A stretch of 64,000 nucleotides of DNA from Candidatus Eiseniibacteriota bacterium (GTDB lineage: Bacteria; Orphanbacterota; Orphanbacteria; Orphanbacterales; Orphanbacteraceae): positions 114,904 through 178,903 of the forward strand of contig JAFGGD010000026.1 of the NCBI GenBank assembly GCA_016930695.1, read 5' to 3'. The translations under genes and the position numbers were made by a program. This document shows positions 6,705-61,116 of this stretch, piece after piece (the first letter of the stretch is position 1; each line of letters opens with the position of its first letter). Under the pieces are notes generated by a model. It was not told the DNA's origin and did no database searches. It was given only the letters and a program-made list of their open reading frames with translations.

Positions 6705-6746
6705 TCGGTTCGGAGACGGGAAGGGTTTCGGAAAGGGCTCCCCGGG

Positions 6747-8659
<1,913 letters not shown>

Positions 8660-31000: not shown

Positions 31001-31183
31001 GACCGGTTCCTTTCTCGGGTGCGTGTGTACGGGTGCGCGAGACACGAGCATAACGCGGCGCTCCGCCGGTGGCAATCACCGGGACCGCCGCCGATTCCGG
31101 TTGGACCGTCCGCCCGGAAAGGGGAAAATAGGCCTGTGGATCGATCGGGCCGATCCCGGCCCGAGCCCGGAGAGGAGGGACTC

Positions 31184-32227
31184 ATGAACGGCGCTCCCCG
31201 CAGCAGGGGAATCGGTTGGTTTTCGCGGAGCCGGTGGCGCGCGGCGCTCGCGGCGGCGCTTCTGATCGTCCTCGCCGGCGTGGTCTGGTTCGGCGCGCGT
31301 TCCGGCCGGAACGGACTCCCCCGCACGCTTACCCTCTACTGTTTTAGCGGCATGCAGGACGTGATGGAGGAAGGGGTCCTTCCCGCGTTCCGCGCGTTCT
31401 GGCTGGAGAGAACCGGAGAACGTGTGGAGTTCATCACCACCTTCGCCGGTTCGGGAACGATCTCGGACAGGATCGTGGAGCGTTTTCCCGCCGAGGTGGC
31501 GATCCTCTCCTCCGAGATGGACGCGTTCCGCCTGGCGGAAAGGGGTGTGGTCGCCGGGCCGACCTGGCGCCGGCAGCCCCGGGGAGGCGTGCTCGGCCGC
31601 TCGCCGATGGTGATTCTGGTGCGCCCCGGCAACCCGTCGGGTATCGCCGGATTCGCGGATCTCGCCCGTCCGGGGCTCGCCCTCGTGCAGCCCGATCCGC
31701 TCACCTCCGGCGCCGGGGAGTGGGGGCTCCTCTCCGTTTGGACGGCCGCGAATGGGGCTGGGGAGGAGGCGGTCGACCTCTTTCGCGGCGTCCGAAGGAA
31801 CACCGCCGCCGTCGCCCCGAGCGCGCGCGAGGCGCGGGCGATCTTTCTACGCGGCGAGGGGGACGCGCTGATCACCTATGAATCCGAGGCGATCGCCCTC
31901 TCGAACCGCCTCGGTTCGGACGCGGTGGTCCGCCCCGTCCCGACCGTCGTCGCCGAGGCGGTGGTGATCGCCATCGACAAGAACGTCGCCGCTCCGCAGC
32001 GCTCGCTAGTGGATGGCTTTCTCGGTTTCCTGTGGGGCGAAGAGGCGCAGTCGATCCTGGCCGCCGGGGGCTTCCGCGCCGCGGACGACGCCGTGAACGC
32101 CCGGTTCCCCGCCCTTCCTCCCGTCGAGGGCGCGGTCACGCTGGCCGATCTGGGAGGGGCGGCGACCGTGAGAGAAAGGATCCTGGGAGAGGCTTGGGAG
32201 AGGAGCGCTTCGCCGGGGGGCCGTTGA
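31184..32227 (+). CDS. Sulfate/thiosulfate-type periplasmic substrate-binding protein (orphan; no cognate permease or ATPase nearby)
   Basis: Start at MNGAP after GGAGAGGAGGGA. Membrane-anchor-like N-terminus. Resembles the Sbp/CysP fold pattern (TFAGSGTISDRI, VRPGNPSGIAGFADLARPGLALVQPDPLTSGAGEW). Confidence 0.6.
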   Translation: MNGAPRSRGIGWFSRSRWRAALAAALLIVLAGVVWFGARSGRNGLPRTLTLYCFSGMQDVMEEGVLPAFRAFWLERTGERVEFITTFAGSGTISDRIVERFPAEVAILSSEMDAFRLAERGVVAGPTWRRQPRGGVLGRSPMVILVRPGNPSGIAGFADLARPGLALVQPDPLTSGAGEWGLLSVWTAANGAGEEAVDLFRGVRRNTAAVAPSAREARAIFLRGEGDALITYESEAIALSNRLGSDAVVRPVPTVVAEAVVIAIDKNVAAPQRSLVDGFLGFLWGEEAQSILAAGGFRAADDAVNARFPALPPVEGAVTLADLGGAATVRERILGEAWERSASPGGR

Positions 32228-32988: not shown

Positions 32989-33250
32989 TCCGCTCCCTCC
33001 CGCTGAGTGTTCGTGGATTGAAGATAATGCGGTTTTCTACGCATGGGAAGGGAATTCGGGGGGAACGTTTTCGGGTTTTTTTCGGAGGGGAGATTCCCCT
33101 CCGGTACCGGATTCTCTTTTCGCGAACGAAGTGGGTGAATAGGTGTTCGGCACCGACAAGTGGATACGTAATGACGCCTCCCGCATATGGTATCCCTGTT
33201 TTCCGGTGCAGACTCGCCATTTCTTGCGCAGGGAGACGGCAGAGCCTAAA

Positions 33251-34762
33251 ATGAACGGGAAGAGAGCGGATCGACCCGACAAAGAAGGGGCCGGCTTGGA
33301 GAATTCTCCTTCCATCGTATGGTTCCGGAGGGATCTGCGGGTTCGCGACAACCGGGCGCTCGCAGCCGCCGCGGCGCGGGGCGGTACGGTCCTGCCCGTC
33401 TTCATCTGGGCGCCCGAGGAAGAGGGGAAGTGGGCGCCGGGCGAGGCCTCCCGCTGGTGGCTCCACCACTCCCTCGAATCGCTCGGCCGCTCCCTCCGTT
33501 CCCTCGGCGCGCCCCTCGTCCTCCGGCGCGGTCCTTCCCGCGAGGCGCTCCTCGATCTCGCCGGCGAAACCGGCGCCGGCGCGGTCTATTGGAACCGTCT
33601 CTACGATCCGGGGCCGGCGAAGCGCGACCGGAGCATCGCCCGCTCTCTCACCGCCGCGGGGATCCTTGCCGAGGGCTTTCCCGGCGCGCTCCTCTTCGAG
33701 CCGGAGGATGTTCGATCCGGCTCGGGCGGGCCCTACCGGGTCTTCACCCCATTCTGGAACCGCCTTCTCTCCCTGCCGGAGCGCGGCGCCGGTCCGGATG
33801 CTCCGAATCGCATGATCGCTTCCGAGAAAAAACCACGCTCTCTTCCTCTTGCGGACCTCGGCCTCCTCCCGCGCGTCGATTGGGCGGCGGGGCTCCGGGA
33901 AGCGTGGACGCCGGGAGAAGAGGGCGCCGTCGCCCGGCTCGATCGTTTTCTCCGCGAAGGGATCGGCGGCTACGACGCCGAGAGGAACCGCCCCGACCGG
34001 GAGGGAACCTCACGGCTCTCGCCGCACCTCTGTTGGGGAGAGATCGCGCCGTCGCGGGCGTGGAGCGAAGCGCGCCGCCGGGCGTCGCGCCTCCGGAGCG
34101 AGAAGACGCGCGCCTCCGCCCTCGCCTGGCTCCGCCAGCTCGCATGGCGCGAGTTCGCCGCCCACCTGCTCCACCACTATCCGAGCACGGTCGAGCACCC
34201 CCTCCGGGAGGAGTTCCGGCGATTCCCATGGCGGCGGAGCCGGAAGGACCTCGAAGCGTGGCGGGAAGGAAGGACCGGATACCCGATCGTCGACGCCGGA
34301 ATGCGCCAACTGCGGGCGACCGGATGGATGCACAACCGTGTCCGCATGATCGCGGGCAGTTTTCTTGTAAAGGATCTGCGTCTCCACTGGCTCGAGGGGG
34401 CGCGCTGGTTCTGGGATACGTTGGTCGACGCGGATCTGGCGAACAACACGCTCGGCTGGCAGTGGGTCGCCGGTTGCGGGGCGGACGCGGCCCCGTATTT
34501 CCGTGTTTTTAACCCGGTCGCCCAGGGGGAGCGGTACGATCCCGAAGGGGCGTACGTGAAACGCCATGTCCCGGAGCTGGCCGGACTTCCCGCGAAGTCG
34601 ATCCACCGCGCCGGCGAAGCGCCCGCGGAAGCGCCGGCCGCGACCGGCCTCCAAGCGGGTCGCGATTATCCGCCGCCGATGGTCGACCATGCCCGCGCCC
34701 GCGAGGAAGCGCTTCTCGCCCTCGCCGCGATGAAGGGCGTGAAGAAGCGGAACCGGCGATGA
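33251..34762 (+). CDS. phr: Deoxyribodipyrimidine photolyase / cryptochrome family
   Basis: N-terminal IVWFRRDLRVRDNRAL. C-terminal FAD-binding signatures TGYPIVDAGMRQL, WMHNRVRM, GWQWVAGCGADAAPYFRVFNP. Start uncertain between 33143 and 33251. Confidence 0.85.
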   Translation: MNGKRADRPDKEGAGLENSPSIVWFRRDLRVRDNRALAAAAARGGTVLPVFIWAPEEEGKWAPGEASRWWLHHSLESLGRSLRSLGAPLVLRRGPSREALLDLAGETGAGAVYWNRLYDPGPAKRDRSIARSLTAAGILAEGFPGALLFEPEDVRSGSGGPYRVFTPFWNRLLSLPERGAGPDAPNRMIASEKKPRSLPLADLGLLPRVDWAAGLREAWTPGEEGAVARLDRFLREGIGGYDAERNRPDREGTSRLSPHLCWGEIAPSRAWSEARRRASRLRSEKTRASALAWLRQLAWREFAAHLLHHYPSTVEHPLREEFRRFPWRRSRKDLEAWREGRTGYPIVDAGMRQLRATGWMHNRVRMIAGSFLVKDLRLHWLEGARWFWDTLVDADLANNTLGWQWVAGCGADAAPYFRVFNPVAQGERYDPEGAYVKRHVPELAGLPAKSIHRAGEAPAEAPAATGLQAGRDYPPPMVDHARAREEALLALAAMKGVKKRNRR

Positions 34763-34850: not shown

Positions 34851-35813
34851 TTGGTGAACGATCATCGCAAAAAGATCCCCATCGGGGTGAGTCGCTGCCT
34901 TCTCGGCGATCCGGTCCGTTTCGACGGCGGCCACAAGAGGAGCCGTTTCCTCACCGACGTGCTCGCCGAGTGGTTCCGTTTCGTGCCGGTCTGCCCGGAG
35001 GTGGAGATCGGCCTCGGCGTCCCGCGCGAATCGATCCGCCTGGTCCGGAGCGACTCGGGCCCCCGTCTCGTGGGGAGCCGGACCGGAAAAGACCGTACCG
35101 AAAAAATGAACCGTTTCACGGAAGAGAGGGCGGAGGGGCTCGCGCCGCTCCGGCTCCGCGGTTTCGTGCTGAAGAGCACCTCCCCCACCTGCGGATTCGA
35201 GCGGGTGCGTATTTACGATACGAACGGCGTGCCGACCAAGGACGCCCGCGGTTTTTGGGGCGGGCGGCTCATGGACCGCTTCCCCCTGCTGCCGATCGAG
35301 GATGAGGGGCGCCTCAACGACCCGCGAATCCGGGAGAACTTCATCGTCCGTCTTTTCACATACGACCGATGGCTCCGGCTCCGGGAAGGGACGGTCCGGC
35401 CGCGGGATCTGGTGGACTTTCACACCGCCCACAAGATGCTCGTTCTCGCCCACAGCCCGAAGGCGATGACCGAGATGGGGCGTCTCACCGCCCGGGCGGG
35501 CGCGGACCCGATGGAGGATCTGCTGGACCGATACGAGGCGGAGATGATGACCGGGCTGCGGAAGATCGCATCGCCGGGGAAACACGTGAACGTGCTCGAG
35601 CACTTCGCCGGTTTCCTCAAGAAGGGGCTCGACCGGGAATCGAAAGCCGAACTGCACGACCTGATCGGCGAGTACGGGCGGGGATGGGTCCCCCTGATCA
35701 CGCCTCTCTCGCTCCTCCGGCACCACCTGAGGCGGCTCGGCCACGAGTGGGTGGAGGCGCAGGTCTATCTGCGGCCCTACCCGCGGGAGCTGGCGCTCCG
35801 GAGCACGATCTGA
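34851..35813 (+). CDS. ybgA: YbgA-like protein (DUF523 + DUF1722)
   Basis: The N-terminal half (GVSRCLLGDPVRFDGGHK...) and C-terminal helical half match the YbgA architecture. Adjacent to the photolyase gene, as in E. coli ybgA-phr. Confidence 0.65.
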   Translation: MVNDHRKKIPIGVSRCLLGDPVRFDGGHKRSRFLTDVLAEWFRFVPVCPEVEIGLGVPRESIRLVRSDSGPRLVGSRTGKDRTEKMNRFTEERAEGLAPLRLRGFVLKSTSPTCGFERVRIYDTNGVPTKDARGFWGGRLMDRFPLLPIEDEGRLNDPRIRENFIVRLFTYDRWLRLREGTVRPRDLVDFHTAHKMLVLAHSPKAMTEMGRLTARAGADPMEDLLDRYEAEMMTGLRKIASPGKHVNVLEHFAGFLKKGLDRESKAELHDLIGEYGRGWVPLITPLSLLRHHLRRLGHEWVEAQVYLRPYPRELALRSTI

Positions 35814-35905: not shown

Positions 35906-37090
35906 CTAGAAGCCGGTGACCATGCCGATCACCCCCCGGTCCGTCTCCCGCTCCAGGTCCCGGGTGTACTCCGCGAGGAAGCGCAGATTGCGCGCAAAGA
36001 GATAGGTGACGCCCGCCGTGGCGGTCTCGTAATCGTAATCGTCCAGATCCGAATCGATCCGGTTGTAGAGCCCGGTGAAGAAGAAACGGGAGCGGTCCTC
36101 TTGGGGCGAGACGACCACCTCCACCACGATTCCCTCGGTCTCCACGTCTTCCGGGGAATCGATGAAAGTGGGATTGGTGTCTTTCCGGAGGAGGTACTGG
36201 ACGGTCGCTCCCACCGGCCCGTATCCCCCGTTCGCGTCCGGGCCCCAATAGGTGATCTCGTTCTCCTCGCCGCCCACGGTCCGTTCCTTGCCGTAGTAAA
36301 TAAAGCCGCCCACGGAGGCGTACTCGCCGATCCCCTGGGCGAGACGGAAGCCGTAGTTCTTGAATTTGTCGTTGTCGAACTTCAGGTTCTCGTCCGCCTC
36401 CGGCTTGCCGTTACCGTTCACCACCATGCCGACCAGGTCGGTGCCGGTCCGCTCGATGCCGTAGAGAAGCATCACCCCCCGGTCGTAGGCGAGATTGTTC
36501 ATCGAGTCGCCGATCCGGGTCTTGTAGATCTGGTAATCTTCGAAGGTGAGCCGCAGCTCGCGCTTCATCAGAGGATCCGAGGTCTGGAACTGGCCGACCA
36601 GCACGTCGAGGGGGACGCCGAAGACGTCGTTGAAGTGGACGTAGGCGTCCTCGATGCCCGCCACCTCCCCCCGCTCGGACATGTAGAAGTAGAAGTAGTA
36701 TCCGATGTTCCGGTAGAGCGCCCCGCCGGACATCAGCTTGATTCCCCAGGGGGACTGCAGGTCGTACTCCACGTCGCCATCTTCTAACGCGTCCTCGTAC
36801 ACGCCGTAGGCGTCGAAGCGGATCGCGACGGGGAAGTCTTTGTTCAGCCAGAGAAGGTCGTCGCCCGCGGTGATATAGTCGCGCTCCTTCTCCTCCTCGG
36901 GGATCATGAATCCGTTGCCGGCGAATTCGTCGCCGTACGGCTTCAGCTTGGGGAAGGGAACGTGGCAGGTGGAGCAGGAGAGCTTGTGCCGCCGCGCGAA
37001 CGCGGGGATCGCGCCTGCTTCTTCGGGGAGGACGGCGGCGAGAACCGTCGCCGCCAGTGCCGCGCACCACACAATCTTCGATCGATTCAT
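35906..37090 (-). CDS. Putative Cyc2-like fused monoheme cytochrome c / outer-membrane beta-barrel
   Basis: Start at MNRSK. Signal peptide. A single CxxCH (CSTCH) about 20 aa after the cleavage site. The remaining roughly 350 aa are rich in alternating aromatic/Gly/Asp residues typical of a beta-barrel and end in ...MVTGF. Lies 50 bp downstream of a multiheme cytochrome gene. Confidence 0.5.
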   Translation of the reverse strand: MNRSKIVWCAALAATVLAAVLPEEAGAIPAFARRHKLSCSTCHVPFPKLKPYGDEFAGNGFMIPEEEKERDYITAGDDLLWLNKDFPVAIRFDAYGVYEDALEDGDVEYDLQSPWGIKLMSGGALYRNIGYYFYFYMSERGEVAGIEDAYVHFNDVFGVPLDVLVGQFQTSDPLMKRELRLTFEDYQIYKTRIGDSMNNLAYDRGVMLLYGIERTGTDLVGMVVNGNGKPEADENLKFDNDKFKNYGFRLAQGIGEYASVGGFIYYGKERTVGGEENEITYWGPDANGGYGPVGATVQYLLRKDTNPTFIDSPEDVETEGIVVEVVVSPQEDRSRFFFTGLYNRIDSDLDDYDYETATAGVTYLFARNLRFLAEYTRDLERETDRGVIGMVTGF

Positions 37091-37142
37091 TCTTTCCGTA
37101 CCTCCCTCTCCGCGCCGCGCGCGCCTCACCGCGCCGCGCGGT

Positions 37143-38489
37143 TCAGTCGTACACTTCGATCCACGTCTCGGCGTGATTGATCGGAACGACCGCGCTCTCG
37201 TCGGCCGGAACATTCAACAGGTCCGCCACCGGCTTCACCAGTTTTTGAAAGTTCAACTCCGCGTGGAATGTCACCCGGCCGGGGGAGAGGTCCTCGGGAA
37301 TTTCCCAGGTGAAGGTCTCGATCTTGGTTTCCCGCGGGCCGATCCGGTAGTCGACGCCGAAGCTCTTCGTGTTCCACTGCATGATGGTCATCCGGCCTTG
37401 GGGATCGAAGTAGGGCATCCGGAAGATCCGGTCGCCGAACGGAACGCCGTCGCGCTGCACGCCGGGGAAGTCCGGATCGTCCAGCGGAACAGCCATGTCC
37501 TGATAGGCGAGCACGTCGGCGGCGATCGTGTACTCCTCTCCGCTGAAACCTTTCGGATCCACGGGAAGGTGCCACGTCCGTCCTTCCTCGTCTTCGGCGG
37601 TCACGTGGAGCCATACGATGCGGTCCTCCACCGAGCCGGTCGGGATCTTGTGGCCCGCCTTCCCGTTGAAGAGCTGCACCTTCACGACAGCGATCCCGTC
37701 GTAGGGGACCTCGCGTTCTTCGGGGTGCATCCGGAGTTCCACGGCGCCGGCCACCTTTCCGGGGTCGTGAGCGCCGTGGAAGAGGTGTTGCGCCACCGAG
37801 TCCGCCTCGACCATGGAGGCGCTCTTCCCCCAGGCGCGCGGCTCGTGACAGCGCTGGCAGGGAACCCCGTCGGCGCCGTAAGGACCGGCGGCCCACTCGA
37901 TCTGGGTCGCCTTCACCCACGCGCCGTAGGGGCTCATCTCGTTGTGACAGGTCCCGCAGAACTCCGCCTGCCGGAGGAAGGGGTTGTACTCCGTGTCGTG
38001 ATGGGGGGAGACGCGCCCCGGTTTGGGGCCGTACTTGGTGCGCCCCGGCGTCGAAATCCAATTGAAGTTAAAAGGGGTGTCGCCGGCGTAGCCGCTCACC
38101 GTGTGGCAGACGTCGCAGCTCACCGATTCGTTGGCGCGGCTGTTCTTCTCCGGGCGCGGCGGAGGGGTGTCCCCCGCCAGATAGGCGATCGGCGTGTGAC
38201 AGCCGTTGCACCCCGGTTCCGCCTTCGCCGCGATCGGGTCCCTCTTGGCGTGCTCCACCGCCAGGCCGAAATACTCGATCTCGTCCCAGTGATGGGTGAA
38301 TGCCTGGGCCATCATCGACTGCTCCCACTGCCGGAAGAGATCGGTGTGACAGCTGCGGCAAGCGGCCGGCTTCTCGTAATCGTCGTAACTCTTGGTGTTG
38401 TAGGCTTCTTCGCCGGAAGGACCGCCCCCCGCAGCGAAGGCGACGTGGGCGGCGAGGAGAAGAACCGGGAGGAGGGTGAAACGTTTCAT
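37143..38489 (-). CDS. Secreted pentaheme c-type cytochrome
   Basis: Start at MKRF (AAGGAGG SD). Signal peptide. Five CxxCH motifs (CRSCH, CNGCH, CDVCH, CGTCH, CQRCH). Confidence 0.8.
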   Translation of the reverse strand: MKRFTLLPVLLLAAHVAFAAGGGPSGEEAYNTKSYDDYEKPAACRSCHTDLFRQWEQSMMAQAFTHHWDEIEYFGLAVEHAKRDPIAAKAEPGCNGCHTPIAYLAGDTPPPRPEKNSRANESVSCDVCHTVSGYAGDTPFNFNWISTPGRTKYGPKPGRVSPHHDTEYNPFLRQAEFCGTCHNEMSPYGAWVKATQIEWAAGPYGADGVPCQRCHEPRAWGKSASMVEADSVAQHLFHGAHDPGKVAGAVELRMHPEEREVPYDGIAVVKVQLFNGKAGHKIPTGSVEDRIVWLHVTAEDEEGRTWHLPVDPKGFSGEEYTIAADVLAYQDMAVPLDDPDFPGVQRDGVPFGDRIFRMPYFDPQGRMTIMQWNTKSFGVDYRIGPRETKIETFTWEIPEDLSPGRVTFHAELNFQKLVKPVADLLNVPADESAVVPINHAETWIEVYD

Positions 38490-38661
38490 CCGGACCTCCT
38501 TTTCGTAGGCCCGGTTCCCGGGATTCAGGGCGCCGGGCGGAAAACCCCTGGGGGACGGCACCATAAGAACAAAAACCGACCCCGGAATCCAGCATTTTTA
38601 CACGATTTGCCTGTTTGTCCTCCGCCGCGCGCGCCGGGTCGCGGGGGATGCGTTTCCGGGG

Positions 38662-38690
38662 TTGACAGGAAGACGAAATGGACATATGTT
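38662..38690 (+). promoter_or_regulatory. Candidate sigma-70 promoter TTGACA-N17-TATGTT for the DUF134 / NifX-like / MinD-like operon
   Basis: Consensus -35 at 38662-38667 and -10 at 38685-38690 with a 17-bp spacer, immediately upstream of the start at 38709. Sits in a divergent intergenic region. Confidence 0.4.
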
Positions 38691-38708
38691 CAATACGAGG
38701 TGACCGGA

Positions 38709-39185
38709 ATGCCACGACCGATGCGAAGAAAAATCATCTCTCACGGAATCGACCGGCGCGCTTTCAAGCCGGTCGGCGTTCCCCGCACCGGGCTCGAAAC
38801 CGTCTACCTCACCCTCGACGGGCTGGAGGCGATCCGCCTGGCCGACGGCGAGGGTCTTTACCAAGAAGCCGCGGCGGAGAGAATGGACGTTTCGCGCACC
38901 ACATTTTCGCGGATTCTCGCGGCCGCGCGGCGCGCCGTGGCGGAAGCGCTTCTTGAAGGAAAAGCCCTCGAGATACGCGGCGGAGTCGTGGACCGCTCCC
39001 CCGCGGGACCCCATCCATGCCCGGTGCATGGAGGGGTGAGACGGACGGGGCGGGGTTGCCGTTGCGGTCCCAGAGACGGACACGGGCGGGGCATGAGGGC
39101 GGACGGAGAAAGCGAGCAATCTATGGACGAGAAACATCCCGGCGGGGACGACAAAGCCCGGCCGGACGAGGAGGAAAGTCGATGA
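38709..39185 (+). CDS. DUF134 (UPF0251) putative DNA-binding protein
   Basis: Family-typical N-terminus MPRPMRRKI and FKPVGVP, with a sigma-70-region-4-like HTH. The upstream part of the long ORF in this frame is junk. Stop overlaps the next start (ATGA). Confidence 0.6.
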   Translation: MPRPMRRKIISHGIDRRAFKPVGVPRTGLETVYLTLDGLEAIRLADGEGLYQEAAAERMDVSRTTFSRILAAARRAVAEALLEGKALEIRGGVVDRSPAGPHPCPVHGGVRRTGRGCRCGPRDGHGRGMRADGESEQSMDEKHPGGDDKARPDEEESR

Positions 39186-39766
39186 AAATCGCAATCACGG
39201 CGATGGGCGACGGATTGGACGCCGAGGTCAGCCCCGTTTTCGGGCGGGCCCCCTATTTTCTTTATGTGGACGTCGAAAGCGGCGAGGTGGAGGCATTGGT
39301 GAATCCTTCGGTGGACGCGCCGGGAGGGGCCGGAATCCGTTCCGCCCAGATCGTCGCGGACTCGGGGGTGGGCGCGGTCGTGACCGGACGACTCGGCCCG
39401 AACGCCTCACGTGTTCTTCAGGAGACCGGGTTGGACCTTTTCCGCGCGCGTGCCGGCACGGTCCGGGAGAATCTGGACGCTTTCCGCGGCGGGACGCTCG
39501 AACGTCTCGATGACGTGGGGGAGGCGGGGTTCGGGGGGAAACCGGGCGCGATGGGCGGCGGTCGTGGCGGCGGCATGGGCGGCGGCGGCGGGAGCGGAAT
39601 GGGGAGTGGTCGTGGTGGCGGCATGGGTGGTGGCGGTGGCATGGGCGGTGGTCGAGGCGGTGGTGGCGGTATGGGGGGCGGCCGTGGCGGCGGCGGCGGT
39701 CGTGGCGGCGGCGGTGGTGGTGGCGGCGGTGGTGGCCGTGGTGGTGGTGGCGGCGGCGGGCGCTGA
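39182..39766 (+). CDS. NifX/NifB-like dinitrogenase FeMo-cofactor-domain protein with an approximately 80-aa Gly/Arg/Met-rich low-complexity tail
   Basis: The first roughly 110 aa (MKIAITAMGDGLDAEVSPVFGRAPYFLYVDVESGEV...) match the NifX/NafY fold family. The tail consists of GGRGGGMGGGG repeats. Confidence 0.7.
   Translation: MKIAITAMGDGLDAEVSPVFGRAPYFLYVDVESGEVEALVNPSVDAPGGAGIRSAQIVADSGVGAVVTGRLGPNASRVLQETGLDLFRARAGTVRENLDAFRGGTLERLDDVGEAGFGGKPGAMGGGRGGGMGGGGGSGMGSGRGGGMGGGGGMGGGRGGGGGMGGGRGGGGGRGGGGGGGGGGGRGGGGGGGR
39535..39763 (+). repeat. Imperfect GGC/GGT tandem-repeat tract encoding (G3-5 R/M)n
   Basis: Read directly: repeated ggcggtggtcgtggcggcggcatgggcggc units over about 230 bp. 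Confidence 0.7.
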
Positions 39767-39783
39767 TTCATCGGAGGGACTGT

Positions 39784-40653
39784 GTGATGATCCTTGCCGT
39801 GGCAAGTGGAAAAGGGGGAACCGGGAAAACGACCGTCGCGATCGGTTTGGCGCGGGCCGCGGCGGCGGAGGGCCGCACCGTGCTTTTCCTGGACTGCGAT
39901 GTGGAGGCGCCGAACGCGGCGCTCTTCCTCCATCCGGAGTGGGAGGAGGAAAGGCGGGTCGGCGTCCTCCTGCCCGAGGTGGACCCGGAGAAGTGCACGG
40001 GCTGCGGGCGCTGCGCCGAGGTGTGCGCCTATTCCGCCCTCGCCGTGGTGAACGGGAAGGTGCTCCTTTTCGACGATCTCTGCCACGGCTGCGGGAGCTG
40101 CATGCGGCAGTGTCCCGAGAAGGCGATCACCGAACGGCTCCATACAACCGGAAGCCTCCATGCGGGCCGGGCCGGCGCGATTCTCTTCGCCCGGGGCGTG
40201 CTCGACGTGGGGCGAGCCATGGCGCCGCCCGTGATCCGCGAACTGAAACGATGGAAGCTCGGGGGCGCGGGCGGGCCGGGACGCCTGGCGGTGCTCGACG
40301 CGCCTCCGGGCGCGTCCTGTCCGGTGGTGGAAACTCTCCGGGGCGCCGACCGCGTTCTTCTCGTCACCGAACCGACCCCCTTCGGCCTGCACGACCTGGA
40401 GCAGGCGATCGGCCTCGCCCGGGACGCCCTCGGGCTCCCCGTCGATGTCGTTCTGAACCGCGCCGACGAGGGAGATGACGCCGTGGAGCGTTTTTGCGAG
40501 AAAGAGGGGATCCCCGTGGTGCTCCGCATACCCTTCGACAGGAAGATCGCCGAGGCGTATTCGGAAGGAATCGCGCCGGACCACGCGGTGCCGGAGGTCG
40601 GGCGCGCCTTTCGGGATCTCCTGCTCGTGCTCGCCGGGAGGGAGGGAGGATGA
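39784..40653 (+). CDS. MinD/ParA-superfamily P-loop ATPase with inserted 2x[4Fe-4S] ferredoxin domain (CooC-like)
   Basis: Deviant Walker A GKGGTGKTT. Two Fe-S cysteine clusters, CTGCGRCAEVC and CHGCGSCMRQCP. Confidence 0.8.
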   Translation: MMILAVASGKGGTGKTTVAIGLARAAAAEGRTVLFLDCDVEAPNAALFLHPEWEEERRVGVLLPEVDPEKCTGCGRCAEVCAYSALAVVNGKVLLFDDLCHGCGSCMRQCPEKAITERLHTTGSLHAGRAGAILFARGVLDVGRAMAPPVIRELKRWKLGGAGGPGRLAVLDAPPGASCPVVETLRGADRVLLVTEPTPFGLHDLEQAIGLARDALGLPVDVVLNRADEGDDAVERFCEKEGIPVVLRIPFDRKIAEAYSEGIAPDHAVPEVGRAFRDLLLVLAGREGG

Positions 40654-41561
40654 TGAAGCAACTGGTCGTGCTGAGCGGCAAGGGGGGCACGGGGAAGACA
40701 TCGGTCGCCGCCGCGCTCGCGGTGCTCGCCTCGCGTGAGAGGAAGATCGTCCTCGCCGACGCGGACGTGGACGCCGCCAATCTCGCCATCCTTCTCGACC
40801 CGATCGAGGAGGAGCGTGTCGACTTCGTTTCGCCCGAAACCGCGGCGATCGATCCGGAGCGGTGCGTCGCCTGCGGCCTCTGCGCCGAGGCGTGCCGCTT
40901 CGACGCGATCCCGGTCGAGGATTCCGTCTACCGGGTCGATCCACTCGGATGCGAGGGGTGCCGCGCCTGCCTCTGGGTCTGTCCCGAGGACGCGATCCGC
41001 ATGGAGCGCGAACCGGCCGGCTTTCGACTCCGTTCGCGCACCCCCTACGGCCTTCTTCACCACGCCCACCTCTTTCCCGGCGCGGAGAATTCGGGAAAAC
41101 TGGTGAGCGAGGTGCGGCGCGAGGCGCGGCGGAGCGCCTTGGACGGAGGCGCGGACTTCATTCTGATCGACGGGCCGCCCGGCATCGGCTGTCCGGTGAT
41201 CGCGGCGAGCACCGGCGTCGATCTCGCTCTTCTCGTCGCCGAGCCGACCGTCTCGGCGATCCACGACCTGGCGCGCGTGCGCGGCGCCGCGGAACACTTC
41301 GATGTTCCCTGCGCGATCGTCGTCAACAAGTGGGATCTGAATCCGGGGAAGACCGCCGAGATCGAGCGCTTCGCCGCGCGCGACGGCTTGGAGATCTGGG
41401 GAAGGATTCCCTACGACCGGGAGGTGCCGCGCACGCTCGTGATGCGCCGTCCGATCACCGAGTGTCCCGCCGAGGGTGTGCGGAAGGCGATCGCGGAAAT
41501 CTGGGAAGCGGCGCGCCGCGCCATGGATGACGCCGGCGATCCCTTTCCGACGCGCGGCTAA
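40650..41561 (+). CDS. Second MinD/ParA-superfamily ATPase with inserted 4Fe-4S ferredoxin domain
   Basis: GKGGTGKTS. CVACGLCAEAC and CEGCRACLWVCP. ATGA overlap with the upstream paralogue. Confidence 0.8.
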   Translation: MMKQLVVLSGKGGTGKTSVAAALAVLASRERKIVLADADVDAANLAILLDPIEEERVDFVSPETAAIDPERCVACGLCAEACRFDAIPVEDSVYRVDPLGCEGCRACLWVCPEDAIRMEREPAGFRLRSRTPYGLLHHAHLFPGAENSGKLVSEVRREARRSALDGGADFILIDGPPGIGCPVIAASTGVDLALLVAEPTVSAIHDLARVRGAAEHFDVPCAIVVNKWDLNPGKTAEIERFAARDGLEIWGRIPYDREVPRTLVMRRPITECPAEGVRKAIAEIWEAARRAMDDAGDPFPTRG

Positions 41562-41641: not shown

Positions 41642-42055
41642 CTAGAGGCCGAGCACGCGGGCCGCGGTTTCATACTCCTCCGGCCGCACGTGGAGGATAT
41701 AGCCGAAACGCCCCGCGCCGTCCCCCACGGCGTAAGAGGAGTAAACGTTCACGCCGCCGTCGCACAGCTTGCGATGGAGTTCGCCGAGCGCTCCCATCTC
41801 GTCCTTTCCCTGGACAATGAAAGCGTTTTGCGGGCCCGTCAACACCAGGTCCACCGACCCGGCCGCCCGTGTGAGTGCTTGGGGATCCTCGGGGAAGAGA
41901 ACGAGCTGCGTGCTGTCCGCGCCGAAGGGAATGGCGTGGAAGGCGCACAAATTGACCCCCTTCTCCTTGAGGCGGCAGAGAAGGTGGCACGCGCCGCACG
42001 GTTTGTCTTTGACTGTCGTATAGAAATACGCGACCCGACGAATGATCATGTCCAT
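41642..42055 (-). CDS. Hypothetical protein, tandem ACT-like fold
   Basis: 137-aa ORF with two similar halves resembling ACT regulatory domains. No strong motif. Confidence 0.4.
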   Translation of the reverse strand: MDMIIRRVAYFYTTVKDKPCGACHLLCRLKEKGVNLCAFHAIPFGADSTQLVLFPEDPQALTRAAGSVDLVLTGPQNAFIVQGKDEMGALGELHRKLCDGGVNVYSSYAVGDGAGRFGYILHVRPEEYETAARVLGL

Positions 42056-42167: not shown

Positions 42168-42581
42168 TCATTCCGAAGAGCGGCGGGCGGCCGTCAGCAC
42201 GAAAACCGCCCGCGCGGCCGCCCTCTCTTCACCGTCCTGTACGAGGATGGCGCTGGTGCGCATCAGCCGCCGTTTCCGTTCTTCCACACGGGCGGTGACG
42301 GTCAGCGCTCTCTCGGTGCTCACCGGCTTTTTGAAGGAAACGTGGATCTCGGCGGTGGCGGCCCCCTCGGCGAGGCTGCCGGTTGCGTAAGCCATCGCTT
42401 CGTCGAGCAACGTGGAGATGACGCCGCCGTGCAATACGCCGCTCCAGCCCTGGTATTCCCGTTTCGGCGTCCAGGTGAAAACGGCGCTCCCCTCTTCATC
42501 CGTCCGCACGTTCAGATGCAGCCCGATCGGATTGCGGGATCCGCAAGCAAAGCAGTAATCGTTGTCGGTGAATCGGTTCAT
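42168..42581 (-). CDS. PaaI-family hotdog-fold thioesterase
   Basis: The C-terminal 137 aa of a long ORF. Start at MNRF. Motif region HGGVISTLLDEAM typical of PaaI/4HBT thioesterases. The upstream part of the ORF is junk. Confidence 0.7.
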   Translation of the reverse strand: MNRFTDNDYCFACGSRNPIGLHLNVRTDEEGSAVFTWTPKREYQGWSGVLHGGVISTLLDEAMAYATGSLAEGAATAEIHVSFKKPVSTERALTVTARVEERKRRLMRTSAILVQDGEERAAARAVFVLTAARRSSE

Positions 42582-42794
42582 GGTCTCTCCTCTCGGGCGA
42601 ATTCTCTCCCAGTATAGAGCGGACCATGCGCGTGTTCGTAGGATATTTGGGAAGACGACAACTTTTCGCGAAGCGAAAAAGCATCGGGTGCCGAGGCCGG
42701 TTTCCGCGCCCCTACGTTGCCGGGATCGCTCCCGTGTGACACAATGAAAGAAGCGGTGGGCGCCGCCGGCGTCTTCCGCGCGCGTGGGGAGGCG

Positions 42795-44045
42795 ATGATC
42801 GAAGCAAAGGGCACGGTATTGAACCGGCGGGAGTTCCTCCGTCTCGCCGGAATCGGGGGTGCGTGCGCCGCCGCGTCGAGTCCATTCCTGTCCGGGCGGC
42901 TCGGGCGCTTGTTGACGGGCGCGGGCGTCGCGGAGGCGGCGGGCGCGAGCCCTCTGGCGCGCAACGCTCCGGAGGCGCGCTACTACGTCTCCACCCTCGC
43001 TCCGGCGGGGGTCTGCGCTTCCTGTCACGGCGACGCCTCGGACCTCGATGTCTCCTACCGGCACACCTCCCGCGCGGTGAAGTGCTTCCTCTGCGCGAAC
43101 GAGTGCGACATCCCGGACGGCGCGCGCGGGCTTTGCCGTGCACGTGAGAACGTGGGCGGCGTCCTCAAGACCCTCGTCTACGGCCGCCCCGCGGCGATCC
43201 ACGTCGACCCGATCGAGAAAAAACCCTTCTATCATTTCCTCCCCGGCACGACCGCCTTTTCCATAGGCACCGCCGGATGTCCTCTCCGCTGCGAGTTTTG
43301 CCAGAACTGGGAGCTTTCCTCCGCCGCTCCCGAGGAGATCGAAGGGGAGGAGGTGACCCCCGGCGCGATCGTTCGCGCCGCCCTCCGGCGGGGAGCGCCC
43401 ACCATCGCCTTCACCTACAACGAGCCGACGGTTTTTTTCGAATACCTCGCCGACATTTCCCGGGAGGGACGGAAAGAGGGGCTCCGGCACGTGCTGGTCA
43501 GCTCCGGTTACATGAACCCGGAGCCGCTCGAGGAGATGTGCGGTTTCTTGGACGCGATCAAGATCGACCTCAAAGGTTACGACGAGGAGTTTTACAGGAA
43601 GGTCTGCGGCGGCGAGCTGGGGCCGGTGCTCCGGTCGATCCGGGGGGCGGCGCGCCGCGGTGTCCATCTGGAGATCGTCAATTTGGTGGTTCCCACGCTG
43701 AACGATTCGCCGGAGCGCCTGCGCGAACTCTGCCGCTGGGTCGCCGGAGAGACGGGGCCGGACACGCCGGTCCACTTCACCCGCTTTCATCCGGATTATC
43801 GAATGCTGAATCTTCCGCCGACGCCCGTCTCCACGCTGGAGCGCGCCTGGGAGATCGCGCGCGAAGAGGGCCTTCGCTATCCCTACGTGGGGAACGTGCC
43901 GGACCACCCCGGAAACAACACCTACTGCCCCTCCTGCGGCGGGAAGGCGATCGAGAGGATCGGCTTCCACACCATCGGGGTCCGCGTGGACGAGGAGGGA
44001 AGGTGCGCCGCTTGCGGCGCGCCGATCGCCGGAGTATGGAAATGA
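42795..44045 (+). CDS. AmmeMemoRadiSam-system radical SAM enzyme with N-terminal twin-arginine-like extension
   Basis: Family N-terminal motif CFLCANECDIPDGARGLCRAREN. Radical SAM CPLRCEFC (CxxxCxxC). An approximately 65-aa N-terminal extension carries NRREFLRLAG and CASCH. Followed by Memo and AMMECR1 domains. Confidence 0.75.
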   Translation: MIEAKGTVLNRREFLRLAGIGGACAAASSPFLSGRLGRLLTGAGVAEAAGASPLARNAPEARYYVSTLAPAGVCASCHGDASDLDVSYRHTSRAVKCFLCANECDIPDGARGLCRARENVGGVLKTLVYGRPAAIHVDPIEKKPFYHFLPGTTAFSIGTAGCPLRCEFCQNWELSSAAPEEIEGEEVTPGAIVRAALRRGAPTIAFTYNEPTVFFEYLADISREGRKEGLRHVLVSSGYMNPEPLEEMCGFLDAIKIDLKGYDEEFYRKVCGGELGPVLRSIRGAARRGVHLEIVNLVVPTLNDSPERLRELCRWVAGETGPDTPVHFTRFHPDYRMLNLPPTPVSTLERAWEIAREEGLRYPYVGNVPDHPGNNTYCPSCGGKAIERIGFHTIGVRVDEEGRCAACGAPIAGVWK

Positions 44046-45628
44046 AGAGAATTCGAAGAGCGGCCGAACGCCGCGCCGCGCGTCTCCTCGTCCCGGCGAT
44101 CGCCTGCGCGCTCCTCCTCCCCGGAACGGCGGGCTGCGCGGGCGACGCCGGAAACGAGGGACCGGGCGTGCGGGAACCGGCGGTGGCGGGAAGCTTCTAT
44201 CCCGAAGATCCGGATCGGCTGAGACTCGCCGTGCGCGCCTTCCTGAATGAGGCGCCGGTGAAGGAGAAGGGGACGGCGCTCGCGATCCTGGCGCCGCACG
44301 CCGGGTACATCTACTCCGGGCAGATCGCCGCGGACGCCTGGCGGCAGGCGGCGGAACTCCCCATCGAGACGGTGGTGATCCTCGGCACCAACCACACCAC
44401 CGCCCCTTTTCGGGGCGCGTCGGTTTGGGGGAGCGGCGCCTACGGGACGCCGCTCGGCGACGCGCCGGTGGACGCGGAGTTCGCGGCGCGGCTCCGCGAG
44501 GAAGACGACCGTTTCGTCTTCCGCGCCGATACGCACCGGAAGGAACATTCCGTGGAGGTGCAGGTTCCCTTCGCCCAGATCCTTTTTCCCGAGGCGCGCA
44601 TCGTGCCGATGGTGATCGGCGATAAGGACGCGGAGATGTGCCGCGCCCTCGGCCGCGCGATCGGCCGGATCGCCTCGCCCGGCCGCACGCTGATCGTGGC
44701 GAGCACCGACCTTTCGCACTATCCCGCCTACGACGACGCGGTCCGGTCGGACCATGCCGTGCTCCGCGCCGTCGCTTCCCTCGATCCTTCGGAGGTGAAG
44801 CGAACGATCGCCCGCGAGATGGACCGGGGCGCGGCGGATCTCTCCACCTGCGCCTGCGGCGAGGGACCGATCCTCGTCGCGATGCATGCCGCCCTCGAGA
44901 TGGGCGCCGATCACGCCACGGTGGTGAGCTACGCCAACTCGGGGATGGCCGCCATCGGAAACCCCGACCGGGTAGTCGGTTACGGAGCGGTCGCCTTCTC
45001 CTCCGGAGGCGGAGGGACGGACCTTGCGGCGCTCGAATCGCCGGCTCCGGCGCGCGAGGTCGATGGGCCGCTCACCGGGGAACAGCGCGCCTGGTTGATC
45101 GACCTGGCTCGGCGGAGCGTGGAGCAATACATGCTCACCGGCACGGCGCCCCTCGCCCGTCCCGACGATCCGGCGCTTCTGGCGCGGCGCGGCGCCTTCG
45201 TCACGCTGAAGAAGCGCGGCGAGCTGCGCGGCTGCATCGGCCACATGAAGGAGGATCTCCCCCTCGCCCGAACCGTGGGGGCGATGGCCCTGCAGGCCGC
45301 CTTCAACGATCGTCGCTTCCAGCCCGTTCAATGGGAGGAGTGGCGCGACATCACCGTAGAGATCTCGGTGCTCACCCCGTTTCGCGAGATCGACGGGCCG
45401 GAGAAGATCGTGATCGGGCGCGACGGCGTGCTCCTGAAAAAGGACGGGCGCTCCGCGGTCTACCTCCCCCAGGTCGCCCCCGAACAGGGTTGGGATCGGG
45501 AGGAGACGCTCGATCATCTCTGCGCCAAGGCGGGCCTCCCCGGCGGTTGCTGGAAGAGGGGCGCCGCGCTCTACACCTTCCAGGCGGAGGTGTTCGCCGA
45601 GGAGGGGGACGCGGAGGCTTCGCGCTGA
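44036..45628 (+). CDS. Fused Memo-like (AmmeMemoRadiSam protein B) + AMMECR1 (protein A) protein with signal/lipobox-like N-terminus
   Basis: Memo motifs AGSFYPEDPDRL, ILAPHAGYIYSG, LGTNHT. C-terminal AMMECR1 motif GAFVTLKKRGELRGCIGHM. N-terminus MEMKRIRR...LLLPGTAGCAG. Start overlaps the radical SAM stop. Confidence 0.75.
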   Translation: MEMKRIRRAAERRAARLLVPAIACALLLPGTAGCAGDAGNEGPGVREPAVAGSFYPEDPDRLRLAVRAFLNEAPVKEKGTALAILAPHAGYIYSGQIAADAWRQAAELPIETVVILGTNHTTAPFRGASVWGSGAYGTPLGDAPVDAEFAARLREEDDRFVFRADTHRKEHSVEVQVPFAQILFPEARIVPMVIGDKDAEMCRALGRAIGRIASPGRTLIVASTDLSHYPAYDDAVRSDHAVLRAVASLDPSEVKRTIAREMDRGAADLSTCACGEGPILVAMHAALEMGADHATVVSYANSGMAAIGNPDRVVGYGAVAFSSGGGGTDLAALESPAPAREVDGPLTGEQRAWLIDLARRSVEQYMLTGTAPLARPDDPALLARRGAFVTLKKRGELRGCIGHMKEDLPLARTVGAMALQAAFNDRRFQPVQWEEWRDITVEISVLTPFREIDGPEKIVIGRDGVLLKKDGRSAVYLPQVAPEQGWDREETLDHLCAKAGLPGGCWKRGAALYTFQAEVFAEEGDAEASR

Positions 45629-60879: not shown

Positions 60880-61116
60880 CTACTCCTGGTCTTTACTGAC
60901 TTGAATGGCGAAATCGGGGCAGATCCAGACGCACTGCTCGCAGGCGGTGCACCGCTCCGGATGGACGACGACGGCTTTCTTGTCCTTGGACATTTCCAGC
61001 ACGTCGCGCGGACAGTAGGTCACGCAGAAGCCGCACCCCTTGCACCAATCGAGACGGATCTCGATCTTGGGGATCGGCTTCCCCGTTTTCCGGGGGCTCG
61101 TCTCTTCCTTCTCCAC
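60880..61116 (-). CDS. 2-oxoacid:ferredoxin oxidoreductase delta subunit (2x[4Fe-4S] ferredoxin)
   Basis: 78 aa. CKGCGFCVTYCP and CTACEQCVWICP. Confidence 0.85.
   Translation of the reverse strand: MEKEETSPRKTGKPIPKIEIRLDWCKGCGFCVTYCPRDVLEMSKDKKAVVVHPERCTACEQCVWICPDFAIQVSKDQE

Follow-up and report, generated by a model that had tools for sequence, protein, structure and literature searches.

A four-gene operon at positions 38709-41561 of a 64,000-nucleotide (64 kb) stretch of a Candidatus Eiseniibacteriota metagenome-assembled genome (MAG; contig JAFGGD010000026.1), this whole stretch being referred to here as the window, is a minimal variant, tail-bearing and putatively DUF134-regulated, of a module already known from anaerobes, rather than something categorically new. 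The functional reading favoured here, to which a probability of roughly one half is attached, is that the operon is a stripped-down version of an anaerobe-wide ORP/IssA-type module that handles inorganic iron-sulfur (Fe-S) material. All four genes lie on the forward strand: g1 (38709-39185, 158 aa) encodes a DUF134/UPF0251 helix-turn-helix (HTH) protein, g2 (39182-39766, 194 aa) a Nitro_FeMo-Co (NifX-like) domain followed by a Gly-rich tail, g3 (39787-40653, 288 aa, 30.3 kDa) an "A-type" MinD/NifH-class P-loop ATPase, and g4 (40650-41561, 303 aa, 32.7 kDa) a "B-type" paralogue of g3. An earlier annotation made from the sequence alone (the original prediction) had suggested profile searches for DUF134, for Nitro_FeMo-Co and for CbiA/ParA with Fer4, and all of these domains are indeed found above the Pfam gathering scores. 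Its statement that the gene neighbourhood has no assigned function was an overstatement, as the same module is that of the ORP complex of Desulfovibrio vulgaris, while the architecture of g2 is that of the IssA/IssX proteins.

The paired ferredoxin-ATPases

The products of g3 and g4, each of which contains a CbiA/ParA P-loop domain and two Fer4 domains, are 38% identical and 53% similar to one another, and share the deviant Walker A motif GKGGTGKT (SGKGGTGKT in g3). Each has the full 2 x CxxCxxCxxxC complement of ferredoxin cysteines, namely C70-x2-C73-x2-C76-x3-C80 and C99-x2-C102-x2-C105-x3-C109 in g3 (39994-40113, +), and Cys72/75/78/82 and Cys101/104/107/111 in g4. All eight positions are invariant in the two alignments made (A1 and A2), the one exception being Cys73, whose conservation in A2 is near-complete (at least 90%); within A1, g3 is 53-54% identical to the first ATPase of two related loci (L001 and L002). 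A further cysteine, the invariant Cys178 of g3, lies in a PPGxxCPV motif seven residues after the Walker B Asp, and its equivalent in g4 is Cys181, in PPGIGCPV. We take this spacing to be the same as that of the switch II ligand Cys132 after Asp125 in the NifH of Azotobacter vinelandii, and regard it as a lead. In the AlphaFold2 model of g3 (predicted local distance difference test score, pLDDT, 91.6) the fold is of the MinD/NifH class, with a beta-hairpin stalk and a 2x[4Fe-4S] ferredoxin domain (approximately residues 49-140) inserted directly after switch I, and a helix is predicted at the very end of the chain (residues 269-287). The proposal that the operon encodes two paralogous ATPases, each with an inserted 2x[4Fe-4S] ferredoxin domain, is therefore borne out.

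As to which ATPases these are, a Foldseek search with the g3 model matched MinD, FleN, ApbC, HypB and NifH, with query-normalised TM-scores no higher than 0.61, and the nearest solved structures found by fold were archaeal MinD proteins; no solved chain matched to g3 by sequence covers the P-loop core and the ferredoxin insert together. The deviant Walker A dimeric ATPase fold is one that g3 and g4 have in common with NifH/BchL, Mrp/NBP35/ApbC, HypB(Mrp-type) and CooC, but whereas the clusters of NifH-type proteins lie at the dimer interface, those of g3 and g4 would lie in the inserted eight-Cys ferredoxin domain. None of the four operon proteins passes any curated NCBIfam model, with MinD, ParA, ApbC and MrpORP all far below their cutoffs; for minD_arch, whose cutoff is 201.75, g3 scores 56.8 bits and g4 scores 71.1 bits, and for minD_bact, whose cutoff is 212.9, they score 38.4 and 62.6 bits, respectively. 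It follows that g3 and g4 are MinD-class by fold but not MinD, and on the same grounds their identification as bona fide MinD, ParA or CooC was rejected. In the sequence collections g3 is 100% identical to a protein from a Candidatus Eisenbacteria MAG (P0121), and g4 matches NCBI protein MBN1825558.1 exactly.

That the two ATPases would act together is indicated by natural fusions. At E <=1e-30 the ATPase family numbered 819 cluster representatives (at 50% identity) in an exhaustive HMMER search, and 33 of the best 150 of these are at least 560 aa in length. In all 26 of the 26 A-B fusions that were checked, proteins of about 600 aa, the N-terminal half best matched g3 and the C-terminal half g4, the order within these fusions being that of the genes; they constitute strong evidence that the A-type and B-type proteins would form a heterodimer.

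Conservation of the neighbourhood and the ORP complex

Gene neighbourhoods were compared across the best 80 of at least 569 relatives from a scan of GTDB species representatives, these 80 loci being annotated with hidden Markov models (HMMs) built from sequences gathered in this analysis; many of these contigs are truncated, and all counts quoted from these loci, here and below, are lower bounds. The loci span many phyla, Chloroflexota, Desulfobacterota, Planctomycetota, Omnitrophota and Acidobacteriota among them, and also include Candidatus Aminicenantes, NC10 and Bathyarchaeota. A B-type ATPase directly follows the A-type in 73 of the 80, and a NifX-like domain is encoded within 6 kb of the A-type ATPase in 76, confirming the earlier statement that this neighbourhood recurs in anaerobes. 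Other genes found near the A-type ATPase are those for Mrp (36/80), DUF5320-like proteins (28/80), NifX-like proteins with a Gly/Arg tail (25/80) and zinc-ribbon proteins (25/80), and in 10/80 DUF134 is encoded no more than 6 kb away from the two ATPases. From contexts annotated with Pfam a fuller gene order can be read, running DUF134, Fer4, (EncFtn), DUF5320, NifX-like with tail, ATPase A and ATPase B, and then on through Zn_ribbon_8, AF_2379, NifX-like, Mrp, DUF364 and radical SAM, while elsewhere the gene families are linked not only by order but also by fusions, of which there are DUF134-NifX, NifX-DUF5320, ATPase A-B and Mrp-NifX types. In the window the module HMMs matched only the four operon genes and a short ferredoxin-like open reading frame (ORF) at 60880-61116 (weakly, to the ATPase models), so that the module is present here in a minimal form.

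A known relative is the ORP complex, first described in 2011. Of its members in D. vulgaris, Orp3 and Orp4 are MinD-like proteins with two [4Fe-4S] motifs each, and Orp8 is a Nitro_FeMo-Co protein; Orp3 and Orp4 co-purify with Orp8, and MrpORP passes Fe-S clusters on to them (PMC6345978). When compared with Orp3 and Orp4 (DVU2103/2104) by way of the published description and the genomic context of the latter, g3 and g4 are likewise two adjacent, paralogous MinD-like ATPases of around 30 kDa, with two [4Fe-4S] ferredoxin motifs each and with a divergence and size similar to those of the D. vulgaris pair (41% similar, Orp4 being 31 kDa; PMC6345978, PMC8359166). In the same cluster g2 is, as Orp8 is, a single-domain Nitro_FeMo-Co protein, and both the ORP complex and the type of module seen in the window are restricted to anaerobes. 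In six Desulfobacterota loci, orthologues of the A/B pair (48-53% identical to g3) adjoin ORFs that pass the NCBI equivalog cutoff for MrpORP (500-529 bits against 450). The 64 kb window itself contains no MrpORP, Orp5 or Orp7 genes, and the matches to Mrp queries within it are weak ones to g3 and g4 themselves. A further difference from the ORP module lies in g2, with its long Gly/Arg tail and its greater closeness to MTH1175 than to the orange protein. It is plausible that g3, g4 and g2 form a complex of the Orp3-Orp4-Orp8 type, for which the A-B fusions and the conserved adjacency provide indirect support. The control of the genes differs, since the operon has a sigma-70-like promoter and a DUF134 regulator, as against sigma-54, OrpR and IHF in the case of the D. 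vulgaris ORP genes (their regulation is described in PMC8359166).

The first function to be proposed for the D. vulgaris ORP complex was a cytoskeletal or positioning one, in which g3 and g4 would correspond to MinD-like membrane-associated ATPases acting in cell division or polar organisation. Quite apart from the MinD-class fold, and the fact that archaeal MinD proteins are the nearest solved structures, this role has in its favour that inactivation of OrpR leads to morphological defects, that MrpORP is found at the cell pole, and that Orp3 and Orp4 have predicted C-terminal amphipathic helices (PMC6345978, PMC8359166), with which the predicted terminal helix of g3 may be compared. However, the NCBIfam MinD scores quoted above are far under their cutoffs, there is no MinC or MinE model among the NCBIfam matches of the locus proteins scanned, and the invariant eight-Cys inserts, together with the near-universal linkage to genes for NifX-like proteins and Mrp Fe-S carriers, indicate redox or cluster chemistry instead; the ORP authors themselves label the cell-division role a hypothesis. 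As an account of g3 and g4 it is judged to be improbable.

A few individual loci show features that deserve mention in passing. In L002 the genes for DUF134 and DUF5320 have an EncFtn-like ferritin gene (6228-6479) between them, and CGGC-domain proteins are encoded next to NifX-like or DUF134 genes in L003 (7697-8077) and L084 (5413-5859). On the Desulfobacterota-like contig L003 there is also (at 5432-6805) a gene for a PAS-containing sigma-54 enhancer-binding protein, immediately followed by a gene for a tail-bearing NifX-like protein, in an arrangement that resembles the control of orp operons by OrpR.

The NifX-like protein and its glycine-rich tail

Residues 1-108 of g2 (39182-39505, +) make up an acidic Nitro_FeMo-Co/MTH1175-like globular domain (pI 4.7, no Cys), which scores 75.7 bits against Pfam PF02579 (Nitro_FeMo-Co) over residues 13-102. 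The closest solved relative is MTH1175 (1eo1; E = 2.7e-28, 102.5 bits, residues 1-114), which itself has little or no tail, and further matches in the PDB are TM1290 (1rdu; E = 5.6e-17) and the orange protein (2wfb; E = 6.1e-15, 58.9 bits); at E <=0.01 there is no NifX or NafY structure among them. There are also no nif genes among the annotated neighbours of the operon, though the whole window was not screened for these. The original prediction, which saw in g2 a cofactor-binding protein of the NifX/NafY fold, was correct as regards the family (PF02579), but it missed the tail, and the nearest solved relative is MTH1175 rather than NifX or NafY.

The tail itself (residues 109-194 plus the stop codon, 39506-39766, +) consists of poly-Gly interspersed with Arg and Met in degenerate GGGM/GGGR repeats, there being 61 Gly (71%), 7 Arg, 1 Lys, 6 Met and, of the aromatic residues, 1 Phe, 0 Trp and 0 Tyr among its 86 residues, for a pI of 11.9. 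The underlying DNA is rich in GGC and has a 24-nt period (at 39551-39759 there are tandem repeats whose periods are 12, 24 and 48 nt), and it may be prone to slippage. The suspicion that translation of GC-rich DNA had produced an artefactual tail could be ruled out, because all 120 of the 120 listed g2 homologues, from a search biased towards tail-bearing proteins in that candidates were gathered via shared short words, carry comparable in-frame Gly-rich C-terminal extensions (33-205 aa, mostly cationic) after the same domain. The listed homologues are 33-55% identical to g2 in the best local alignment (the best match in the search is 54% identical); their tails are typically of the form (GGGMGGGR)n with a pI of about 12, and many of them run on into a coiled coil that corresponds to Pfam DUF5320. 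The exact sequence of g2 is absent from a collection of 15 billion proteins in which g1, g3 and g4 of the same MAG are all present, and it may be that the g2 gene was uncalled, or called differently, in the deposited annotation.

This architecture invites comparison with that of IssA (SipA, PF2025) of Pyrococcus furiosus, in which an IPR003731 domain is followed by a disordered, cationic, Gly-rich tail, and which serves as a store of iron and sulfur in the form of anionic thioferrate; on its own the IPR003731 domain binds Fe and S, and the tail has been proposed to wrap the polyanion (PMC5524996). According to the same source IssA proteins have a pI >=9, <5 Cys and >=20% Gly in the last 40 residues, and IssX proteins a pI >=8, <10 Cys and >=10% Gly over the same stretch, and MTH1175 was assigned by these authors to the IssA clade (PMC5524996). 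The values for g2 as a whole are a pI of 8.19, 0 Cys and 85% Gly, all three of which lie within the IssX ranges, and as in IssA an N-terminal IPR003731/PF02579 domain is combined with a C-terminal tail. The likeness thus resides in an acidic globular domain, few or no cysteines and a Gly-rich cationic tail. On the other hand the g2 tail, nearly all of it Gly with Arg and Met besides, has no equivalent of the Pro-rich linker of IssA, and g2, again unlike IssA, comes from a bacterium and is encoded in an operon with ferredoxin-ATPases, any binding of thioferrate by it being presumed by analogy. IssA homologues are upregulated in Methanococcus voltae grown on FeS2, in cells that accumulate more iron (PMC8516115), and in Thermococcales sulfur co-induces IssA/SipA together with a gene pair that is identified, by annotation, as "CobQ with iron-sulfur binding domain" (PMC6981617). 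SipB (PF2026/TON_0916) is described just as "ATPase C-terminus", and it was not used as evidence.

A different cargo is suggested by the match to the orange protein, in that g2 could bind or buffer a Mo/W/Cu-sulfide cluster, with the ATPases assisting in its insertion, either for the supply of molybdo- or tungsto-enzymes or for the detoxification of copper and thiomolybdate. The cluster of the orange protein, [S2MoS2CuS2MoS2]3-, is also an anionic inorganic one and is held non-covalently (PMC6345978), the six Met of the g2 tail could ligate Cu(I), a molybdopterin oxidoreductase gene lies immediately downstream of the module in L001, and a gene for a solute-binding protein of the SBP_bac_11 family is found 7 kb upstream of the operon in the window. 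Nevertheless, g2 is much nearer to MTH1175 than to the orange protein (by the scores just given); no molybdenum-cofactor or molybdoenzyme genes flank the operon, and the linkage that is seen is to Fe-S carriers, in the shape of Mrp, while linkage to Mo enzymes was not seen systematically (though it was not scored). A thiometallate cargo is for these reasons considered quite unlikely.

Tails of this kind are not confined to NifX-like proteins. The small DUF5320 (PF17253) proteins, which are encoded beside NifX-like proteins in the same module or are fused to them, share the Gly/Arg-(Met/Trp/Phe) repeat chemistry of the g2 tail, but g2 is without the C-terminal coiled coil that defines PF17253, and with an HMM for the coiled coil no stand-alone DUF5320-like gene was detected in the window. 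Among related loci the chemistry of the tails varies, while always being Gly-rich and cationic: L088 (6387-6857) encodes a NifX-like protein with a GHGHGHGRGGRGR tail, and L001 has GRGW repeats on a DUF5320 protein (5199-5645) and a GGGWGRGRGGRGW end on a DUF134 protein (6593-6907). Two g2 homologues of about 300 aa (P0106 and P0108) combine a NifX-like domain, a Gly/Arg tail and a C-terminal eight-Cys ferredoxin domain.

The DUF134 protein

With a score of 72.5 bits against Pfam PF02001 (DUF134; gathering score 27), g1 is a DUF134 HTH protein, just as had been proposed. Against the NCBIfam equivalog PRK04217 it reaches 56.2 bits, where the cutoff is 115, and it therefore belongs to the superfamily but falls outside that equivalog; it is 100% identical to a database entry (P0241) named [quoted passage not shown]. 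In its AlphaFold2 model the core (residues 25-90) has pLDDT >90 and forms a confident HTH, while the C-terminus is unstructured, and the best Foldseek matches to the core are sigma-factor region 4 domains (probability 1.00, but E ~0.09). Within the C-terminal part there is a Cys3His motif, CPVHGGVRRTGRGCRC (39018-39065, +), comprising C104, H107, C117 and C119. When 40 homologues are aligned these positions hardly vary, and nor does the motif PCPVHGGxRRRGRGCRCG in the DUF134 subfamily to which g1 belongs; of the 120 listed DUF134 homologues, 74 have the more general pattern C-x-[VILM]-H-x(5-14)-C-x-C. Some Fe-S-sensing regulators, for instance IscR, use a Cys3His ligand set, and the motif in g1 is a candidate metal or Fe-S sensing site.

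The ties between DUF134 and NifX-like proteins are particularly close. At least 23 of the 120 listed DUF134 homologues are fused to Nitro_FeMo-Co, and in the closest DUF134 relatives of g1 a NifX-like gene always comes next, sometimes with no ATPases nearby (as in L086-L089); in L088 the two genes share a 4-nt overlap, the same as that between g1 and g2. This raises the question of whether g1 and g2 might together be a ligand-sensing transcription factor, that is, a two-polypeptide form of the DUF134-NifX fusion, in which the NifX-like domain would sense a cluster or metal ligand, the Arg/Gly tail would be an RGG-type nucleic-acid-binding or condensate-forming segment, and the ATPases would be the regulated output. 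Besides the fusions, the ATPase-free pairs and the translational coupling of g1 and g2, it may be cited in support of this that RG-rich motifs in DUF134 and DUF5320 proteins of Methanosarcina mazei have been flagged as potentially G-quadruplex-binding (PMC7565180), and that related DUF134 proteins themselves end in Gly/Arg/Trp tails. Similar tails are, however, also found on DUF5320 proteins that stand alone and on NifX-like proteins whose genes are remote from any for DUF134, the ATPase pair has DUF134 within 6 kb in just 10 of the 80 loci as against 76 for the NifX-like domain, and the sole tail of this kind to have been studied experimentally, that of IssA, binds an inorganic polyanion (PMC5524996). 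As g2 could do both, sensing and storage are compatible with one another, but as an explanation of the operon in its own right the sensor-regulator arrangement must be rated unlikely, if by no means negligible.

Proposed function

What the components are, and that they are linked to one another, is established by the results given above; the most reasonable role for the module is the handling of metal clusters, and we infer a mechanism along the following lines. The product of g2 would be a scaffold or store, its acidic domain nucleating anionic inorganic iron-sulfide species, whether thioferrate-like as in IssA or some other metal-sulfide cluster as in the orange protein, and its flexible cationic tail neutralising and wrapping them. 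An ATP-dependent heterodimer of g3 and g4, with its four [4Fe-4S] clusters beside switch I and a conserved Cys in switch II, would couple nucleotide binding to electron transfer, and in this way could either assemble the Fe-S material bound to g2 or mobilise it reductively for apo-proteins. Finally g1 would bind the palindrome-bearing promoter described below, and would tune expression to Fe-S, metal or redox status via its CPVH...CRC residues, possibly together with g2.

This proposal may be carried a step further, though only tentatively: the module could be the core of an ATP- and redox-gated system for the storage and mobilisation of iron sulfide, an anaerobe counterpart of ferritin that is widespread in anaerobic bacteria and archaea. 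The Gly/Arg-(Met/Trp/Phe/His) tails of NifX-like, DUF5320 and DUF134 proteins would then be mineral-templating disordered regions, and the ferredoxin-ATPase might be the missing physiological reductant that frees Fe-S fragments from the stored polymer; when Fe-S is transferred from IssA in vitro, DTT is required.

A number of points weigh against the reading of the operon as a module for inorganic Fe-S material. With regard to the known relatives, the ORP complex has been tied experimentally to cell morphology and not to storage, its role being described as unclear (PMC8359166), the cluster held by the orange protein is a Mo-Cu one and not iron sulfide (PMC6345978), and IssX is an uncharacterised clade from non-thermophiles (PMC5524996). 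With regard to g2, the likeness to IssA was drawn from the published criteria and the MTH1175 match; its pI of 8.19 falls short of the value of 9 for IssA, although its Cys and Gly contents are within the IssA limits, and its tail, in which 1 Phe is the sole aromatic residue among 86, is without the Trp-containing aromatic complement that is typical of IssA. The six Met in that tail, and the GHGH tails of some relatives, could signify soft-metal binding instead. In the window, genes for Mrp, DUF5320, a second NifX-like protein and a zinc-ribbon protein, which are the usual companions of the module, were not found by the HMMs, and electron transfer by g3 and g4, their heterodimerisation and the binding of DNA by g1 are all things that we infer.

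Such a module bears on the question of how, in the absence of oxygen chemistry, iron and sulfur are stored and mobilised by strict anaerobes, and IssA is, to our knowledge, the sole Fe-S store to have been characterised. Gene order and four kinds of fusion now join the IssA and ORP stories, and lead to the testable idea that a NifX-like scaffold with a tail, a heterodimeric ferredoxin-ATPase and a DUF134 regulator with a Cys3His motif work together. If true, this would assign roles to DUF134, DUF5320 and the MinD-like ATPases that contain a ferredoxin insert, all three of them unannotated families; a full-text literature search found no functional studies on DUF134, on DUF5320 or on COG1149 proteins with MinD and ferredoxin domains, and nothing newer than 2021 on Orp3, Orp4 or Orp8. 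The operon in the window is an ordinary member of the group, from an uncultured phylum, and its value is as a compact test set of four genes.

Operon structure and promoter

The four genes are a single operon with a sigma-70-type promoter, correctly delimited in the original prediction, and the codon-position GC content of g1, g3, g4 and the g2 domain follows the pattern of real genes for a 66.6% GC genome. That the genes overlap end to start throughout, as had been stated, is true of two of the three junctions, where ATGA overlaps can be read from the sequence (g1/g2 at 39182 and g3/g4 at 40650), but not of the third; between g2 and g3 there is a gap of 20 nt, in which a ribosome-binding site for g3 (GGAGGGA, 39774-39780, +) is read directly. 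Downstream of g4 a terminator scan revealed no intrinsic terminator, and the folding of the region is no better than that of shuffled sequence (z = 0.47).

The almost perfect TTGACA-N17-TATGTT promoter reported earlier is present at 38662-38690 (+), with TTGACA at 38662-38667 and TATGTT at 38685-38690, and ends 19 nt before g1. Scored against the general sigma-70 consensus, which may not represent the rules of this phylum, sites of at least 10/12 number just two on both strands of the 64 kb, as compared with 0.375 expected from a first-order Markov model, and since one of the two lies so close to g1, chance is an unlikely explanation of the match. The other site (1686-1714, +; TTGACA-N17-TATGAT, 11/12) is the better of the two. 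Transcription would be predicted to start at about 38697, which is on the GAGGTG ribosome-binding site (38697-38702, +) belonging to the 38709 start of g1, and would give a leader of about 12 nt; in the NCBI annotation of the source MAG g1 starts at the ATG at 38721, making a protein of 154 aa. An imperfect palindrome with the core ACATATGT (38674-38697; 14-nt arms, 79% complementary) overlaps the -10 hexamer and could be an operator. There is no match to the sigma-54 consensus (TGGCAC-N5-TTGC) in the intergenic region 38565-38708.

Flanking genes

Across this 144-bp intergenic region (38565-38708) the operon is divergent from a gene (37143-38564, -) for a 473-aa protein with five CxxCH motifs, which has weak ExtKL/MtrC-like matches, below cutoff. 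The original prediction spoke here of a cytochrome pair, which is apt for this five-haem cytochrome but is a loose label for the two genes together, because the partner (35906-37213, -) is a 435-aa ORF with one CxxCH (CSTCH) and no Pfam or NCBIfam match. The likely true start of the latter is internal, at a signal peptide beginning MNRSKIVW..., and its C-terminus (...VTGF) is as found in outer-membrane beta-barrels; the two proteins might together be a porin-cytochrome module.

This arrangement had led to the suggestion that the operon serves metallocluster or cofactor insertion for the neighbouring redox enzymes. The handling of clusters is, as argued above, the most reasonable role, but a dedicated role in maturing the divergent cytochromes, or in cofactor insertion into other neighbouring redox enzymes, is very improbable indeed, the divergent layout over a short intergenic region being what speaks for it. 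A gene with at least three CxxCH motifs occurs within 8 kb of the A-type ATPase in 4 of the 80 loci, and no multihaem cytochrome is found near the module in any of the annotated contexts (L001-L003, L084-L089). Attachment of c-type haem, moreover, is a periplasmic process carried out by Ccm or Ccs systems and not by cytosolic Fe-S ATPases, and it is because of this mismatch of compartment, as well as the low conservation, that the link to the cytochromes is considered to be unsupported.

The remaining neighbours are functionally unrelated to the operon, and include a photolyase, a thiouracil desulfurase, a thioesterase and an AmmeMemoRadiSam set. Next to g4, and convergent with it, is a gene for a 137-aa protein (41642-42055, -) without a Pfam or NCBIfam match. 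Beyond this lie a 4HBT thioesterase gene (approximately 42171-42650) and, on the strand opposite to it, the AmmeMemoRadiSam-type set (42717-45628, +), which begins with a radical SAM gene (42717-44045) and continues with a fusion of Memo and AMMECR1, the latter two domains corresponding to residues 300-773 of the ORF 43277-45628. On the other side of the operon, beyond the cytochrome gene and its partner, are a DNA photolyase gene (33143-34762, +) and then a 2-thiouracil desulfurase/DUF1722 gene (34851-35813, +). The solute-binding protein gene mentioned earlier (31019-32227, +), about 7 kb upstream of the operon, belongs to a family, SBP_bac_11, that presumably takes in binders of molybdate, sulfate and iron.

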